From Thermoplasmata archaeon (lineage in GTDB: Archaea; Thermoplasmatota; Thermoplasmata; UBA10834): a stretch of DNA of 64,000 nt. Below the pieces are notes generated by a model, which had not been told where the DNA came from, did not search any database, and saw nothing but the letters and a program-made list of their open reading frames with translations. Positions 14,332-18,596 of this stretch are shown in pieces. Both the position numbers and the translations under genes were made by a program. Each line of letters starts with the position of its first letter. The stretch's first letter is position 1. The DNA lies in NCBI GenBank assembly GCA_025457815.1, contig JALOTQ010000001.1, positions 17-64,016 on the forward strand, given 5' to 3'.

Positions 14332-15615
14332 GTGTCAGTGAGCACGAAGGAAAGTTGTGGCAAGAAGTCCGTCGGATGCGCAGCACCTGGCGTCGGAGCA
14401 TACCTCTCGACGCACCTGGATGCACACAATCCAGCGCTTGGGAGCATAGCGATAGTCGACACCACGTGCAGGGACGGGGAGCAGATGCCGGGCATGTCCT
14501 TCACCATGGAGGAGAAGCTCGGAATCGCCAAGAAGCTTGAGCTCATGGGGGTCGAGCAGCTCGAGACCTTCGCAACCTACAATGAGAGCGACAAGAGGTG
14601 CGCCCTGAAGCTGAAGGAGATTACCAGTGCGATCTCCATCATGGGCTGGAACAGGATGGTGAAGGCCGACGTCGTGGATTCGATCGCTCACGGGGTCGAC
14701 GCAGTCTCGGTCTCAACGGAGACCTCTGACATCGCCCTTGAGCACAAGTTCAAGATATCACGGAAGGAGCAGCTGGAGAAGCTGGCGGAATGCGTCTCCT
14801 TTGCCAAGGGCAAAGGGGTCTACGTATGCTTCAACGCGGGCGATGCCACCAGAACATCGATGGACTACCTGGTGGAGTTCGCCTCGGTCGGAAAGGCTGC
14901 GGGGGCTGACAGGTTCAGGATATGCGACACCATCGGCGTCCTGACGCCCGCGACCTCGAAGAAGATGATACACGAGGTCATGTCGGCTGTAGACATCGAT
15001 GTGGAGTTCCACGCTCACAACGACTTCGGGCTGGCCGTGGCGAACGCGCTCGCCGCGGCAGAGGCGGCCGCGCAGTTCCCTCAGAGGAAGCTGTGGGTCT
15101 CGACCACTGTGAACGGGCTGGGCGAGAGGGCAGGCAACGTCTCTCTTGAAGTCTTCGTCATGAACCTGCACAGCCACTACGGGATTGATCGCTACAGGAC
15201 AGAACACATACTGCCGCTGTGCAAGCACGTGGAGAAGGCCTCGGGCCTCTCAATCCCGCTCAACCACCCGATAGTCGGTGAGAACATGTTCACCCACAAG
15301 TCGGGCATACACGTGGACGGCATTCTGAAGAACCCGAGTCTCTACGAGGCCTTCGACCCGTCGAAGTTGGGCATATCCCGGAAGATCGCTCTAGGCAAAC
15401 ACTCCGGGAAATCGTCCATCAAGCACAAGCTTGAGCAGCTAGGTCTCTCAGCTGCCCCGGATGCGATCGAGGCGATAAGGCACGAGGTCGGCATAGCAGG
15501 CGAATCCAAGAAGAGGAACATAACCGACGACGAGTTCGTGGCGATATACAACACGGTCATGTTGGCAAAAGCGCCTCCATCCAGGAGCCTCGCCCAGAGT
15601 ATCACAAGGAGTTGA
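14332..15615 (+). CDS. 2-isopropylmalate synthase / homocitrate synthase / citramalate synthase / Re-citrate synthase family protein, short form without a LeuA-type C-terminal regulatory domain
   Basis: DRE-TIM aldolase core: IVDTTCRDGEQ, HxH metal site (EFHAHNDFGLAVANALAA). At 427 aa it is too short for a regulated LeuA. GTG start at 14332; the first ~30 aa are atypical, so the start is uncertain. Confidence 0.8.
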   Translation: MSVSTKESCGKKSVGCAAPGVGAYLSTHLDAHNPALGSIAIVDTTCRDGEQMPGMSFTMEEKLGIAKKLELMGVEQLETFATYNESDKRCALKLKEITSAISIMGWNRMVKADVVDSIAHGVDAVSVSTETSDIALEHKFKISRKEQLEKLAECVSFAKGKGVYVCFNAGDATRTSMDYLVEFASVGKAAGADRFRICDTIGVLTPATSKKMIHEVMSAVDIDVEFHAHNDFGLAVANALAAAEAAAQFPQRKLWVSTTVNGLGERAGNVSLEVFVMNLHSHYGIDRYRTEHILPLCKHVEKASGLSIPLNHPIVGENMFTHKSGIHVDGILKNPSLYEAFDPSKLGISRKIALGKHSGKSSIKHKLEQLGLSAAPDAIEAIRHEVGIAGESKKRNITDDEFVAIYNTVMLAKAPPSRSLAQSITRS

Positions 15616-15618
15616 AGG

Positions 15619-16872
15619 ATGGGCCAGACCATAGCCGAGAAGGTATTGGCGGCGCACTCCGGCAGCGACTGTGCGGCCGGCGACATCGTCGTAGCGTCAG
15701 TGGATTTCTGTATGGCCCAGGATGGCACATCGACCATGATGATCCGTGAGCTGGAGAATCTCGGGTTCGAGCATCCGAAGACGGCGCTCGGGATGGGGCT
15801 GGTTCTGGACCACAACGCACCATGCCCCTCAGTGGAAGTCGCAAGGGTCCACCTGAGGATCCGCGGCTTCGCCGACAAGAACCGCATCCCGCTCTACGAG
15901 ACGGGCTGTGGCGTTTGTCACCAGGTTGTTCCGGAGAGCGGCAAGGTCCTGCCAGGGAGTCTCGTGGTCGGCGCGGATTCACACACATGCACATACGGAG
16001 CGTTGAACGCGTGCTCGACCGGGCTCGGTTCGGCCGACGTCGCGGCGGCTGCCTATGCAGGCAAGCTCTGGTTCAAGGTCCCCGAGACCTACTCCATCAT
16101 CGCAGAAGGCCAACTGCCCGACAGAGTCGGCGCCAAGGACCTAATGCTCAAGGTGATCGGCCGTTTGACGGCCGATGGGGCGACCTACAAGTCGGTCGAG
16201 TTCACCGGCGCGTCAGTCGCCTCGATGGGCATGGACGGTCGGTTCACCATAGCCAACATGGCCGTCGAGATGGGAGCGAAGTTCTGCCCGTTCTCCTTTG
16301 ACGAGAAGACGTCGTCGTGGTTGTCGGAGAGGGGGTTCTCCGCCGGGGCGCCAGTGTCGTCAGATCCGGATGCGCACTTCGAGAAGCGATTCGATTTCGA
16401 CGCAGCGGACGTCGTGCCACAAGTGGCGCGGCCTCACTCGGTTGACAACGTGTGCGACGCTTCAAGCCTGAGGGGGACGAAGGTGCAACAGGCGTTCCTG
16501 GGCACCTGCACGAACGGAAGACTGAGTGATCTGGAGGCAGCAGCGAGACTGATGAGAGGTCGGACCGTCAACAGAGGAGTCAGGTTCATCGTCGCGCCCG
16601 CTTCGAGGACGGTGCTGTTGGATGCGATGGCGAGCGGCGTTGCCGCGCAGCTGGTCAAAGCCGGCGCGGTGTTCGTCGCTCCTGGTTGCGGCCCCTGTGT
16701 CGGGACCCATGCCGGCGTGCCATCGGATGGAGAGAACGTCATATCGACTGCGAACAGGAATTTCAAGGGCAGGATGGGGAACAACCGGGACGTCGGAATC
16801 TTCCTGGGCTCGCCCGAAACCATTGCCGCCTCAGCCATCACCGGCGAGATAACGGATCCACGAGAGGTCTGA
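15619..16872 (+). CDS. Aconitase-family dehydratase large subunit (LeuC / homoaconitase / aconitase-like)
   Basis: 417 aa. MGQTIAEKVLAAHSG..., FeS-ligand cysteines (GCGVCHQ, CTNGRLSD, PGCGPCVG), LeuC/HacA-like architecture. Confidence 0.85.
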   Translation: MGQTIAEKVLAAHSGSDCAAGDIVVASVDFCMAQDGTSTMMIRELENLGFEHPKTALGMGLVLDHNAPCPSVEVARVHLRIRGFADKNRIPLYETGCGVCHQVVPESGKVLPGSLVVGADSHTCTYGALNACSTGLGSADVAAAAYAGKLWFKVPETYSIIAEGQLPDRVGAKDLMLKVIGRLTADGATYKSVEFTGASVASMGMDGRFTIANMAVEMGAKFCPFSFDEKTSSWLSERGFSAGAPVSSDPDAHFEKRFDFDAADVVPQVARPHSVDNVCDASSLRGTKVQQAFLGTCTNGRLSDLEAAARLMRGRTVNRGVRFIVAPASRTVLLDAMASGVAAQLVKAGAVFVAPGCGPCVGTHAGVPSDGENVISTANRNFKGRMGNNRDVGIFLGSPETIAASAITGEITDPREV

Positions 16873-16884
16873 TGGAGGAATGAC

Positions 16885-17391
16885 ATGCGGTTGACAGGAA
16901 ACGCCCACAGGTTCTCCCCAGACGATGACATCAACACAGACTACATCATCTCTGGAAGGTACAAGTTCAGGATTGACGACATGAACGAGCTGGCCAAGCA
17001 CGTGATGGAGGACATCGACCCGGTCTTCTCGAAGAAGGTGTGCAAGGGCGACTTCATCGTCGCTGGAAGGAACTTCGGATGCGGCTCGAGCAGGGAACAG
17101 GCCCCGAGGGCCTTGAAGGCAGCGGGCGTCTCCGCCGTACTCGCAAAGTCCTTCGCTCGGATATTCTACCGCAGCTCGTTCAACATCGGCCTTCCGTTGA
17201 TAGAGTGCGATACGGATTCGATAAGAGCGGGTGACAGGTTGACTGTAGATCTCGATGCGGGACTTGTCACCAACTCAGTGACTGGTGAGAGCATCCAGAC
17301 GAAATCCATACCCAGGACGATGCAAGTGCTTCTCGAGGATGGCGGCCTGATTGAGCACCTGAAGAAGCACGGCGATTTCGCGCTCGAGTGA
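16885..17391 (+). CDS. Aconitase-family dehydratase small subunit (LeuD-like swivel domain)
   Basis: 168 aa. FIVAGRNFGCGSSREQAPRALKAAGVSAVLAKSFARIFYRSSFNIGL is typical of LeuD/HacB. Lies immediately downstream of the large subunit. Confidence 0.8.
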   Translation: MRLTGNAHRFSPDDDINTDYIISGRYKFRIDDMNELAKHVMEDIDPVFSKKVCKGDFIVAGRNFGCGSSREQAPRALKAAGVSAVLAKSFARIFYRSSFNIGLPLIECDTDSIRAGDRLTVDLDAGLVTNSVTGESIQTKSIPRTMQVLLEDGGLIEHLKKHGDFALE

Positions 17392-17411
17392 GGCATTGAG
17401 GAGTTGAATGC

Positions 17412-18596
17412 ATGGTCAGCGAACCCAGTGAGATCCCAATTCCGTTCATCCCGGGAGACGGAGTGGGGCCAGAGATAATGATTGCAGCCCGCGCGGTCAT
17501 TGATGCGGCTGTAGATCGTTCATCGAGCGGCCGGACAGTCATCCGGTGGGAACACCTTGACGCTGGAGAGGAAGCGTTCAAGAAGCACGGCGTTTGGCTG
17601 CCAGATTCGACCCTTCGGGCTATCAGGGATAGAGGCGTCGCTCTGAAGGGGCCTCTGACGACCCCGGTTGGCGGGGGGATTAGAAGCCTCAACGTGGCGA
17701 TAAGACAATCGCTCGACCTCTACTCTTCGGTTCGGCCAGTGAGATATTTCGAGGGTGTTCCGAGCCCGATGAAGCAGCCGGCGAAGATGGATGTCGTCAT
17801 ATTCAGGGAGAACACAGAGGACGTGTACAAGGGGATAGAGTGGAAGCGCGGCTCAAACGAGGCCGGCGAACTCATCGAGATCCTCCAGACCAGGTTCGGG
17901 ATCGGAATCTCCAAGGACAGCGGGATCGGGCTGAAGCCCATCTCCGAGCGAGCGTCGAAGCGTCTAGTCAGGGCGGCGATCAGGTACGCTCTGACAAGCG
18001 GGAGGAAGAGCGTGACCCTGGTGCACAAGGGCAACATAATGAAGTTCACCGAAGGGGCTTTCAGGGACTGGGGATACGAGCTAGCGCGCAGCGAGTTCCC
18101 CGAACAGGTCGTCACGGAATCAGAGCTCGGTTCGAGAAAATCAGGTCCAAGGCATCTGGCAGGGATTGTCCTTAACGACAGGATTGCGGACAACATGTTC
18201 CAGCAGATCATCACCAGGCCCGAGGAGTATTCTGTCCTGGCAACCCCGAACCTGAACGGAGACTATCTTGCCGATGCGTGCGCCGCTCAGGTAGGTGGAT
18301 TGGGCGTCGCCCCCGGCGCGAACATAGGGGACGAGGCCGCGGTTTTTGAGGCAGTGCACGGCACGGCCCCGAAGTATGCCGGAAAGGACGTCGCGAACCC
18401 CTGCTCGCTGATGCTCTCGGGAGCGATGATGCTGAAGCACATAGGCCTCGAAGGTGCAAGCAGGGTGCTTGTCGGGGCAATACAGGAGACCTTCGCCGAT
18501 GGGACCATGACGATGGATTTGGCCAGGATGGGAGAAGGGATCTCCTCAGTGGGGACCAAGCAGTTCGGAGAGGCGGTGCTGTCCAGAATCAGGTAG
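17412..18596 (+). CDS. icd: NADP-dependent isocitrate dehydrogenase (E. coli Icd type)
   Basis: Near-identical blocks to E. coli Icd: [21 protein letters not shown] (phospho-loop Ser region), [97 protein letters not shown]. This is not a LeuB-type enzyme. Confidence 0.8.

Follow-up and report, generated by a model that had tools for sequence, protein, structure and literature searches.

Do the four tandem genes described here serve leucine or lysine synthesis, or do they form the branch of the tricarboxylic acid (TCA) cycle that leads through citrate to 2-oxoglutarate? The question concerns a 64-kb stretch of DNA from a Thermoplasmata archaeon (contig JALOTQ010000001.1 of assembly GCA_025457815.1), referred to below as the window, in which a condensing enzyme of the LeuA/homocitrate synthase (HCS) family is encoded together with a LeuC/LeuD-like dehydratase and an isocitrate dehydrogenase (IDH). 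The four open reading frames (ORFs) were confirmed at the positions and on the strand given by the initial annotation of this DNA:

14332 to 15615, + strand: synthase gene, a LeuA/HCS-family (DRE-TIM) condensing enzyme, putative (Re)-citrate synthase, 427 aa
15619 to 16872, + strand: LeuC-like large subunit of a putative heterodimeric aconitase, 417 aa
16885 to 17391, + strand: LeuD-like small subunit of the putative heterodimeric aconitase, 168 aa
17412 to 18596, + strand: predicted NADP-dependent isocitrate dehydrogenase, E. coli/A. fulgidus type, 394 aa

These genes most likely encode a whole pathway from oxaloacetate and acetyl-CoA to 2-oxoglutarate. In its first step, the synthase would form citrate from oxaloacetate and acetyl-CoA. 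The stereochemistry of this condensation is probably Re, which holds for every citrate synthase known from the LeuA/HCS family. The LeuC- and LeuD-like subunits would then act as a heterodimeric [4Fe-4S] aconitase, converting citrate into isocitrate via cis-aconitate, and the NADP-dependent IDH would produce 2-oxoglutarate and NADPH, with glutamate synthesis as the destination. The proposal of the initial annotation, that the genes are a citrate branch ending in 2-oxoglutarate and not a leucine operon, gains support from the comparative evidence presented here.

The genes are packed as in an operon, with intergenic gaps of 3, 12 and 20 nt, versus 408 nt between enolase and the synthase gene. 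When one genome per GTDB species was scanned, ~40 Thermoplasmata/Thermoplasmatota loci were obtained from metagenome-assembled genomes (MAGs), with synthase identities of 62-79%. Complete MAG chromosomes with this operon include CP070732.1, CP070748.1 and CP070736.1. The order C11-eno-syn-leuC-leuD-icd-(nhe)-trxB was kept in the Thermoplasmata loci wherever the contig was long enough, and the four-gene order was kept in ~38 species-level loci, down to 62% synthase identity; the cluster is therefore not a chance arrangement. One complete MAG chromosome (L038) was rejected as a locus without leuCD-icd, its gap being one of assembly or masking with a run of N inside the synthase gene (~8700-9300). 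LeuC is in two pieces in L037 (9309-10599) and the synthase in two pieces in L040 (501-1579). These split genes and the N run are probably frameshifts or assembly problems, not gene loss.

The isocitrate dehydrogenase and the LeuC/LeuD-like pair

The fourth gene almost certainly encodes an NADP-isocitrate dehydrogenase. It passes the NADP-IDH equivalog model NF005425 (524, cutoff 490) and scores just under the cutoff of TIGR00183 (554 against 567), with 133 against a cutoff of 353 for leuB. Its best solved relative is the characterised IDH of A. fulgidus (2IV0, 492 bits), and the E. coli enzyme follows with 433 bits, versus at most 172 bits for structures of homoisocitrate dehydrogenase (HICDH) and isopropylmalate dehydrogenase. 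All substrate-binding and catalytic blocks, HGTAPKYAG among them, can be matched to those of solved IDHs in gap-free alignments, and clade members conserve them. We take the key residues of E. coli IDH to be the Ser113/Asn115 loop, Arg119, Arg129 and Arg153, Tyr160, Lys230, Asp283, Asp307 and Asp311, and the NADP determinants Lys344/Tyr345; the Ser and Asn of the isocitrate-binding loop are present in gene 4. The view that this is an E. coli-type Icd, neither LeuB nor HICDH, is thus upheld, and the sequence blocks quoted in its favour lie at residues 87-99 and 205-222.

The second and third genes encode proteins with the Pfam domains Aconitase and Aconitase_C. Among the NCBIfam models they pass only the generic archaeal-type LeuC/LeuD/Hac subfamily models (LEUD_arch for the LeuD-like protein) and fail all leuC, leuD, HacA and HacB equivalogs, with scores of 406 against a cutoff of 610.65 (TIGR02083), 173 against 245.85 (TIGR02084), 201 against 560 (TIGR00170) and 55 against 116 (TIGR00171). 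The [4Fe-4S] ligand motifs of the LeuC-like protein, GTCTNGR and PGCGPCVG, are intact with their three cysteines, and the catalytic motifs GADSHT, GTCTNGR, PGCGPCVG and NRNF.GR are conserved across the clade. The best solved relatives of both proteins are the isopropylmalate isomerase (IPMI) subunits of M. jannaschii (340 and 148 bits). The heterodimeric LeuC/LeuD architecture and the Fe-S ligands are shared with archaeal IPMI (MJ0499/MJ1277) and homoaconitase (HACN; MJ1003/MJ1271), but the window pair differs from both at two sites, where it has Gln instead of His and a YKF[K/R] loop instead of YLVY or YLRT:

15709 to 15726, + strand: LeuC motif C-M-A-Q34-D-G, in which Gln34 aligns with Gln72 of mitochondrial aconitase
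16954 to 16977, + strand: small-subunit specificity loop G-R-Y-K-F-R-I-D, placed by alignments to 3VBA, 2PKP and 1V7L

Gln72 presumably has a functional role in mitochondrial aconitase, whose motif R-V-A-M-Q72-D-A-T was checked in PDB entries 1C96 and 5ACN. At the corresponding position the window protein and all Thermoplasmata LeuCs read C-M-[A/S]-Q-D-G-T. Gln also occupies this column in D. kuznetsovii, Thermosyntropha and the fused PRK07229 aconitase, as it does in mitochondrial aconitase; the residue is His in the IPMI protein MJ0499 and in the HACN of lysine clusters, and Asn in the LeuC of bacterial leu operons. The loop of the LeuD-like subunit carries two basic residues and is one residue longer than that of the IPMI protein MJ1277 (RYLVY-T) or of the methanogen HACN MJ1271 (PY-LRTT). 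The hydrophobic IPMI loop YLV[YM] is absent, YKFR standing in its place. The K-F-R of the window is identical to that of the mitochondrial sequence W-L-K-F-R580, in a loop whose alignment is ambiguous. The small-subunit loop is a poorer discriminator than either the Gln72 column or the LeuC clade.

The clade was delimited in a neighbour-joining (NJ) tree of 91 LeuC sequences (416 columns, simple distance correction). The window LeuC falls within a pure Gln-type clade of 31 sequences with 98% bootstrap support, made up of Thermoplasmata, D. kuznetsovii, Thermosyntropha and metagenomic Gln-type/KFK loci. The Asn-type LeuCs of leu operons form a separate clade (100%), and lysine-linked LeuCs lie outside the Gln-type clade, a phylogenetic placement in keeping with the role first suggested for the LeuC-like protein. 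On balance, the pair very likely functions as an aconitase.

These results bear directly on the possibility of a leucine or isoleucine operon, in which an isopropylmalate synthase (IPMS) or citramalate synthase (CMS) would be followed by an IPMI and a dehydrogenase. Such an operon would accord with the small-subunit name used by both NCBI and JGI, '3-isopropylmalate dehydratase small subunit', and with the M. jannaschii IPMI subunits as best solved relatives, but it is hardly credible in the face of the remaining data. No LeuA or CimA model accepts the synthase, which is also devoid of the LeuA regulatory domain; gene 4 is an IDH with a LeuB score far below the cutoff, and the small-subunit loop is basic (KFR/KFK), not hydrophobic (LVY). 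True leu-operon LeuCs belong to the separate Asn-type clade, with LeuA upstream and LeuB-like genes downstream.

Genomic contexts of related LeuC/LeuD pairs

Re-citrate synthase (Re-CS)/aconitase/IDH branches are well known from Clostridia, Dehalococcoides, Syntrophus and heliobacteria. An exhaustive small-subunit search followed by a profile search showed that KF[KRS]-loop LeuDs are spread over several phyla of both archaea and bacteria. The cultured Firmicute Desulfofundulus kuznetsovii (CP002770.1, around 1.670-1.675 Mb) has its genes in the order synthase-LeuC-LeuD-Iso_dh; its synthase shares 75% identity with HM1_2993, a Re-CS validated by knockout, the LeuC and LeuD that follow it are the counterparts to which the window proteins are 58 and 62% identical, respectively, and the dehydrogenase is a short enzyme of the NAD-IDH type. 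Thermosyntropha has the order gatAB-synthase-LeuC-LeuD-NADP-IDH, with a long NADP-IDH as in the window. In both organisms an HM1_2993-type Re-CS thus precedes the same LeuCD clade and an IDH, and because the trio is followed by either a short NAD-IDH-like or a long NADP-IDH, the constant function is isocitrate dehydrogenase.

The clostridial clusters (C. kluyveri, C. acetobutylicum and Thermoanaerobacterium) cover the same three steps. In Thermoanaerobacterium saccharolyticum, Re-CS is succeeded by a fused aconitate hydratase (PRK07229, 988 bits against 612), so that the slot after the synthase is occupied by an aconitase gene, with Gln at the Gln72 position as in the window; in Thermincola, Re-CS is directly followed by NADP-IDH. 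The clostridial clusters differ from the window in that their aconitase is a single fused polypeptide of ~630 aa, 35% identical to the window LeuC, and the C. kluyveri-type synthase shares just 24-28% identity with that of the window.

A metagenome scan with the LeuC alignment yielded 80 loci, which were classed by the Gln72 column (33 Gln, 26 Asn and 20 His); the loci were picked partly by a Gln-specific peptide pattern, so these proportions are not population estimates, and the context counts within each class are unaffected. Any synthase upstream of a Gln-type LeuC was always of a Re-CS type (HM1 type in six loci, Thermoplasmata type in two, Dehalococcoides and C. kluyveri types in one each). 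An HM1-type Re-CS stands directly before a Gln-clade LeuC in D. kuznetsovii, L091, L093, L097 and L101, and also in L098, which is truncated and outside the tree; in L094 this place is taken by a Dehalococcoides-type Re-CS (59%). Among informative loci, an IDH gene followed within ~3.5 kb in 11 of 21 of the Gln type, but in only 1 of 13 of the His type and none of 20 of the Asn type. The Asn-type loci instead had LeuA or CimA upstream (8 of 16 informative loci) and LeuB-like genes downstream, with no IDH, and the His-type loci had α-aminoadipate (AAA)-type HCS, Lys or HICDH-like genes nearby, one of them with an IDH. Neither LeuA, LeuB, CimA, AAA-type HCS nor Lys genes were found beside any Gln-type locus of this metagenomic set. 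The LeuC clade is thereby tied to Re-CS, IDH and malate dehydrogenase (MDH), the last exemplified by the order aminotransferase-LeuC-ATPase-LeuD-IDH-malate dehydrogenase in L102, and never to leu or lys genes, which favours the aconitase role that the initial annotation had ascribed to the pair. Because Re-CSs of different clades, two IDH subfamilies and fused or split aconitases recur together, the sequence citrate-isocitrate-2-oxoglutarate is what appears constant, and judged by these gene neighbourhoods the same module is present in many other anaerobes.

The closest precedent for a split aconitase comes from D. mccartyi, where a TCA operon contains a putative two-subunit aconitase, a validated NADP-IDH, MDH and fumarase (supplement of PMC4720418). 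As in the window, a LeuCD-like putative aconitase is encoded directly upstream of IDH, and the organism is an anaerobe with a proven Re-CS (cbdbA1708) and a separate leu operon. The Re-CS of D. mccartyi is, unlike the window synthase, encoded elsewhere in the genome; it belongs to another clade and is 32% identical to the window enzyme. The two-subunit aconitase is an annotation-level prediction there; metagenomic loci of comparable make-up, L094 (Dehalococcoides-type Re-CS) and L102 (IDH, MDH), share the LeuC clade of the window. A survey of the aconitase superfamily from 2021 lists HACN and IPMI as the only heterodimeric members, and a Chloroflexi genome with Re-CS has been reported as 'missing aconitate hydratase' (PMC3971608). 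Our literature search found no paper describing a heterodimeric aconitase as such, and prior art may reach further. The statement that a LeuCD-type aconitase is a less well documented arrangement has to be qualified by the annotation-level precedent beside icd in Dehalococcoides.

Several further features of these loci were recorded. A T2SSE-like ATPase gene (~348 aa) lies between the LeuC-like and LeuD-like genes in L102, L105, L108, L109 and L110, followed by IDH. Gln-type LeuCs without an adjoining LeuD had been considered as fused aconitases and were rejected as such; they are ~420 aa long, and LeuD and IDH lie one gene further downstream. A sister Gln-type LeuC clade (L117, L118, L120, L122, L150, L163 and neighbours) has the loop GR[YL]FHLR[ST] and is linked to Re-CS-type synthases and IDH, including a C. 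kluyveri-type synthase in L118 (44%); this FHLR-loop clade may be a second lineage of split aconitase. The gatCAB genes, which encode the Glu-tRNA-Gln amidotransferase, repeatedly occur just upstream of HM1-type Re-CS (L039, L042, L087, L091, L098, L099, L163 and L172). This link spans Firmicutes, Acidobacteriota and metagenomic loci and ties the glutamate-precursor branch to Gln-tRNA synthesis. In a Nitrososphaeria MAG (L086, 3398-6522), a homolog of the C. kluyveri-type Re-CS (40-42% identity) precedes a LeuC of the His type and a LeuD with a KYRT loop, with no IDH nearby; this locus does not fit the Gln rule.

The Thermoplasmata synthase and the weighing of rival pathways

The start codon of the synthase gene is uncertain, lying at GTG 14332 or, as chosen by NCBI, at GTG 14338, and the first ~35 residues are weakly conserved. 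The protein consists of the Pfam domains HMGL-like and HCS_D2 only, and the DRE-TIM motifs RDGEQ, EFHAHND and CDTIG are all present. It scores below the cutoff of every NCBIfam LeuA, NifV, CimA and HCS model, the best results being 390 against 517 (NF002085) and 380 against 463 (TIGR02660), with 303 against 413.55 for TIGR02146. In pairwise comparisons, its nearest characterised relatives are Re-CSs of the HM1_2993/C. difficile/Teth514_0415 type (43-45% identity, 289-295 bits), ahead of Sulfolobus HCS (38%, 232 bits), NifV and IPMS (35% each), the Dehalococcoides Re-CS (32%) and the C. kluyveri type (24-28%); the closest solved structure is that of a homocitrate synthase (6KTQ, 229 bits). The description of gene 1 as a short DRE-TIM synthase that lacks the LeuA regulatory domain was therefore accurate, and the closest characterised enzymes are indeed Re-CSs.

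The enzyme resembles the Re-CSs HM1_2993 of Heliomicrobium (established by knockout), AksA of C. difficile and Teth514_0415 in being a short DRE-TIM protein (~380-430 aa) with no regulatory domain, and it has the motifs N-A-x-D, S-x-S-T-x-S-D and C-D-T in common with them. The same comparison reveals differences. The Thermoplasmata synthases form a separate deep clade in which an otherwise invariant Glu is replaced by Gly. This replacement lies within a motif located from alignments to 6KTQ, 3IVS and 3A9I:

14818 to 14853, + strand: synthase motif V-Y-V-C166-F-N168-A-G170-D-A-T-R

Two positions of this motif also bear on the substrate. In HCS, three residues (His103, Arg163 and Ser165 in S. 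pombe; His72, Arg133 and Ser135 in T. thermophilus) presumably bind the C5 carboxylate of 2-oxoglutarate. They correspond to Trp106, Cys166 and Asn168 in the window protein, the last of these standing where HCSs have Ser or Thr, and this argues against a homocitrate synthase of the lysine type. Taking all the comparisons into account, we consider it fairly likely that the synthase makes citrate.

A number of observations weigh against this assignment and against the pathway as a whole. In the NJ tree of synthases (369 columns, simple distance correction, 100 bootstraps), the Thermoplasmata enzymes form a clade of their own (100% bootstrap) outside every characterised group, nested in none of the three validated Re-CS clades, and the deep nodes have support of 20-45%. 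Phylogenetic placement, to which the initial annotation had looked for an assignment, thus yields a deep branch of its own and no assignment. Second, the window synthase has Gly170 in place of the Glu of the A-E-D motif, which every reference HCS, IPMS, CMS, NifV and Re-CS retains. For HCS, IPMS and CMS, a part as general base or as partner in a dyad has been proposed for this Glu. Gly is fixed in 38 of 38 Thermoplasmata synthases, and all bacterial homologs have Glu (Gln in four). Third, several other family-invariant motifs carry clade-fixed changes, namely Cys for Leu in DTTLRDGEQ (DTTC), LETFATYN(E/D) for IE.G.P.MGG, Ala for His in SDIHI (SDxAL) and the sequence STDTSD, and the synthase has HKSGIH, as in lysine-type HCS, in place of HESGIH. 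On the side of the LeuC/LeuD-like pair, the clade loop is mostly K-F-K (Y-K-F-[K>>R,S], with Arg and Ser in 2 of 36 sequences each) and offers no strict match to the mitochondrial K-F-R, so the Arg580 match was downgraded from decisive to weak evidence for an aconitase. A real lysine-pathway homoaconitase with the same gene order exists in the broader LeuCD subfamily (Baldrarchaeia), and the Gln-type clade includes Atribacterota members whose surroundings contain no synthase and no IDH (LeuC-LeuD-SHMT). Finally, the literature search found no assayed enzyme from either the Gln-type LeuCD clade or the Thermoplasmata synthase clade.

Three separate Re-CS clades have experimental support, represented by C. 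kluyveri/Syntrophus, by Dehalococcoides and by HM1_2993/C. difficile/Thermoanaerobacter (PMC12016533, PMC2930330, PMC8027424). The reference sequences were taken from Table S1 of PMC12016533, machine-read from the PDF with small errors present, and all Re-CSs in that table retain the Glu. The nearest bacterial homologs of the window synthase do group with validated Re-CSs, L039 and L042 with HM1_2993 (99%) and L068, L073, L074, L076 and L077 with Dehalococcoides (100%). The Thermoplasmata synthase is probably active with a modified catalytic arrangement, because the gene is clearly under constraint, and the clade-specific Asp of S-T-D-T-S-D on a neighbouring strand might compensate for the lost Glu.

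The Baldrarchaeia point to a specific alternative, an AAA-type module of homocitrate synthase, homoaconitase and homoisocitrate dehydrogenase that would supply 2-oxoadipate for lysine or a coenzyme B-like compound. Their cluster, synthase-LeuC-LeuD-Iso_dh-LysW-LysX-LysY-LysZ-LysJ, is a lysine cluster that opens with a gene order identical to that of the window, and the 6KTQ structure, the HKSGIH motif and the JGI name 'homocitrate synthase NifV' for relatives of the synthase all lean the same way. We nevertheless regard this module as very unlikely. The Baldrarchaeia LeuC is of the His type with a KYD loop, and their dehydrogenase passes only the isopropylmalate/isohomocitrate dehydrogenase model, unlike the enzyme of the window, which is an NADP-IDH of the E. 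coli/A. fulgidus type (492 bits to 2IV0 against at most 172 bits to HICDH) with the Ser and Asn of the isocitrate loop. The window LeuC has Gln where lysine-cluster HACNs have His and belongs to a different clade (98% support), the C5-carboxylate residues of HCS are replaced by Trp, Cys and Asn, and lysW, lysX, lysY, lysZ and lysJ were found neither in the window nor in the ~38 related loci. The window thus departs from AAA-lysine HCS-HACN-HICDH clusters in both its dehydrogenase, a true IDH, and its LeuC clade.

A second alternative is that the LeuCD pair, and perhaps the synthase too, is multifunctional and serves both the citrate branch and other 2-oxoacid elongations (leucine, isoleucine) in a small genome. 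The Atribacterota members of the Gln-type clade would suit such a role, as would Hecatella, in which a His-type LeuCD with a KFK loop lies outside the clade and among amino-acid biosynthesis genes; these two cases also disproved the notion that KF[KR]-loop LeuCDs are always found beside IDH, neither having an IDH or a synthase nearby. Archaeal IPMI and HACN are reportedly promiscuous (M. jannaschii, P. horikoshii). A multifunctional system is unlikely, however, given that a tight four-gene operon ending in IDH argues for the citrate branch as the primary role and that the Gln signature and the basic loop differ from those of every IPMI examined.

With the pathway from oxaloacetate to 2-oxoglutarate retained as the preferred interpretation, a broader claim can be framed, namely that the Gln-type LeuCDs are a family of heterodimeric aconitases and that the Thermoplasmata synthase is a fourth, independently diverged Re-CS lineage that works without the conserved Glu. 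To us, the arguments for and against this joint claim are evenly balanced. If it holds, the LeuCD family would account for the 'missing aconitase' of many anaerobic bacteria and archaea, among them Thermoplasmata, Peptococcaceae, Syntrophomonadaceae, Dehalococcoidia-like lineages and others, and a Re-CS working without the Glu would imply a relocated or substrate-assisted catalytic base.

Host, neighbouring genes and consequences for annotation

The initial annotation had likened the cluster to those of Clostridia and other anaerobes. The host is an archaeon and not a Clostridium-like bacterium, as the synthase matches with full identity a protein that NCBI lists for a Thermoplasmata archaeon MAG. 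Neither leuB nor lys genes occur in the 64-kb window, and it also lacks a Si-citrate synthase and a monomeric aconitase. On one side, the cluster is flanked by an Lhr helicase, a C11 peptidase and an enolase, and on the other by a convergent Na+/H+ antiporter, a TrxB-like reductase and an S9 peptidase. Two features lie immediately upstream of the synthase gene:

12538 to 13923, + strand: enolase, the same-strand upstream neighbour, with Pfam Enolase_N and Enolase_C
13924 to 14331, + strand: intergenic region 5' of the operon, presumed promoter region, 408 nt, AT-richer at ~14010-14110

Enolase adjoins the cluster in all Thermoplasmata loci compared. Lying 408 nt away, it is probably a transcription unit separate from synthase-leuC-leuD-icd; its product phosphoenolpyruvate is a possible precursor of oxaloacetate, and a functional link to the cluster may exist. 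The 408-nt region is presumed to hold the promoter, and the promoter/terminator scan, which used bacterial-type models, was uninformative for an archaeal host. No Rfam family reached the gathering threshold in the window except two tRNAs, and no regulatory RNA was found.

Two products of the window, an HdrA/MvhD-like protein and a 2-oxoacid:ferredoxin oxidoreductase, speak for an anaerobic host. The former (3074-5530, + strand; 818 aa) unites an FAD/NAD oxidoreductase domain with several 4Fe-4S domains and ends in an MvhD/FlpD domain at its C terminus, and this HdrA-MvhD-like fusion suggests electron bifurcation in a Thermoplasmata lineage without methanogenesis genes in the window. The oxidoreductase is encoded by three genes (49286-52247, + strand; gamma-delta fusion, alpha and beta) and could provide acetyl-CoA from pyruvate or use up 2-oxoglutarate. 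GATase_4, a class-II glutamine amidotransferase domain, is present in a 330-aa protein (34804-35796, + strand) that could relate to a split archaeal glutamate synthase, the expected consumer of 2-oxoglutarate.

An anaerobic host with these ferredoxin- and HdrA-linked enzymes could also run the pathway backwards, by reductive carboxylation of 2-oxoglutarate and cleavage of citrate by a reversible synthase, for autotrophic or mixotrophic carbon assimilation. Both IDH and aconitase catalyse reversible reactions, and reversed oxidative TCA cycles that use citrate synthase exist. We hold this direction to be highly improbable, as the window shows no sign of the remaining reductive cycle and the literature places the flux in the oxidative direction, toward 2-oxoglutarate, in every organism in which the Re-CS family has been studied. 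To our knowledge, reversal has been described only for citrate synthase of the Si type. Operation of the window pathway toward 2-oxoglutarate thus remains the direction that we favour.

Elsewhere in the window, the longest ORFs of the Lhr helicase (8129-11200, - strand, start codon TTG) and the C11 peptidase (11047-12441, + strand) overlap by ~150 nt at their 5' ends, and therefore at least one start codon is over-called. ORFs in 25249-25872, 30535-31032, 32038-37723 and 60701-61777 have a third-position GC of 0.47-0.68, versus ~0.8 elsewhere; most of them have no Pfam match, and they may be foreign DNA or miscalled ORFs. The tRNA genes for Met (25130-25204) and Asn (27524-27600) lie near these low-GC ORFs. 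Two adjoining large TPR-repeat proteins of 625 and 870 aa are encoded at 42025-46511 (+ strand).

The current names of the four genes only partly follow the prediction that automated annotation would label them leuA/leuC/leuD/leuB. The small subunit is indeed called '3-isopropylmalate dehydratase small subunit' by NCBI, but the synthase appears as 'homoaconitate hydratase', the large subunit has the generic name 'aconitase/3-isopropylmalate dehydratase large subunit family protein', and the IDH is correctly named 'NADP-dependent isocitrate dehydrogenase'. Orthologs of HM1_2993-type Re-CS pass the nifV cutoff of TIGR02660 (540 against 463; L081, 5546-6712), and enzymes of this type are named homocitrate synthase across non-diazotrophic Firmicutes (Thermoanaerobacterium, Thermincola and Desulfofundulus), in what looks like systematic misannotation.

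Three elements of these findings appear to be new: the occurrence of all three steps in one operon in an archaeal lineage, the Thermoplasmata; a distinct synthase clade without the conserved Glu; and a Gln-type LeuCD clade delineated by a simple diagnostic residue. The fixation of Gly in place of Glu in ~38 species is a natural test of the need for that residue in the DRE-TIM family of Claisen condensing enzymes. Metabolic reconstructions of uncultured anaerobes routinely leave the TCA cycle incomplete, on the grounds that citrate synthase or aconitase is absent. If the LeuCD clade is an aconitase and the LeuA-like enzymes are citrate synthases, such gaps would be annotation artefacts, the TCA genes being present under the names homocitrate synthase, homoaconitate hydratase and isopropylmalate dehydratase, and a rule based on Gln versus His or Asn, combined with gene context, would let annotation pipelines tell aconitase-type LeuCDs from IPMI and HACN.

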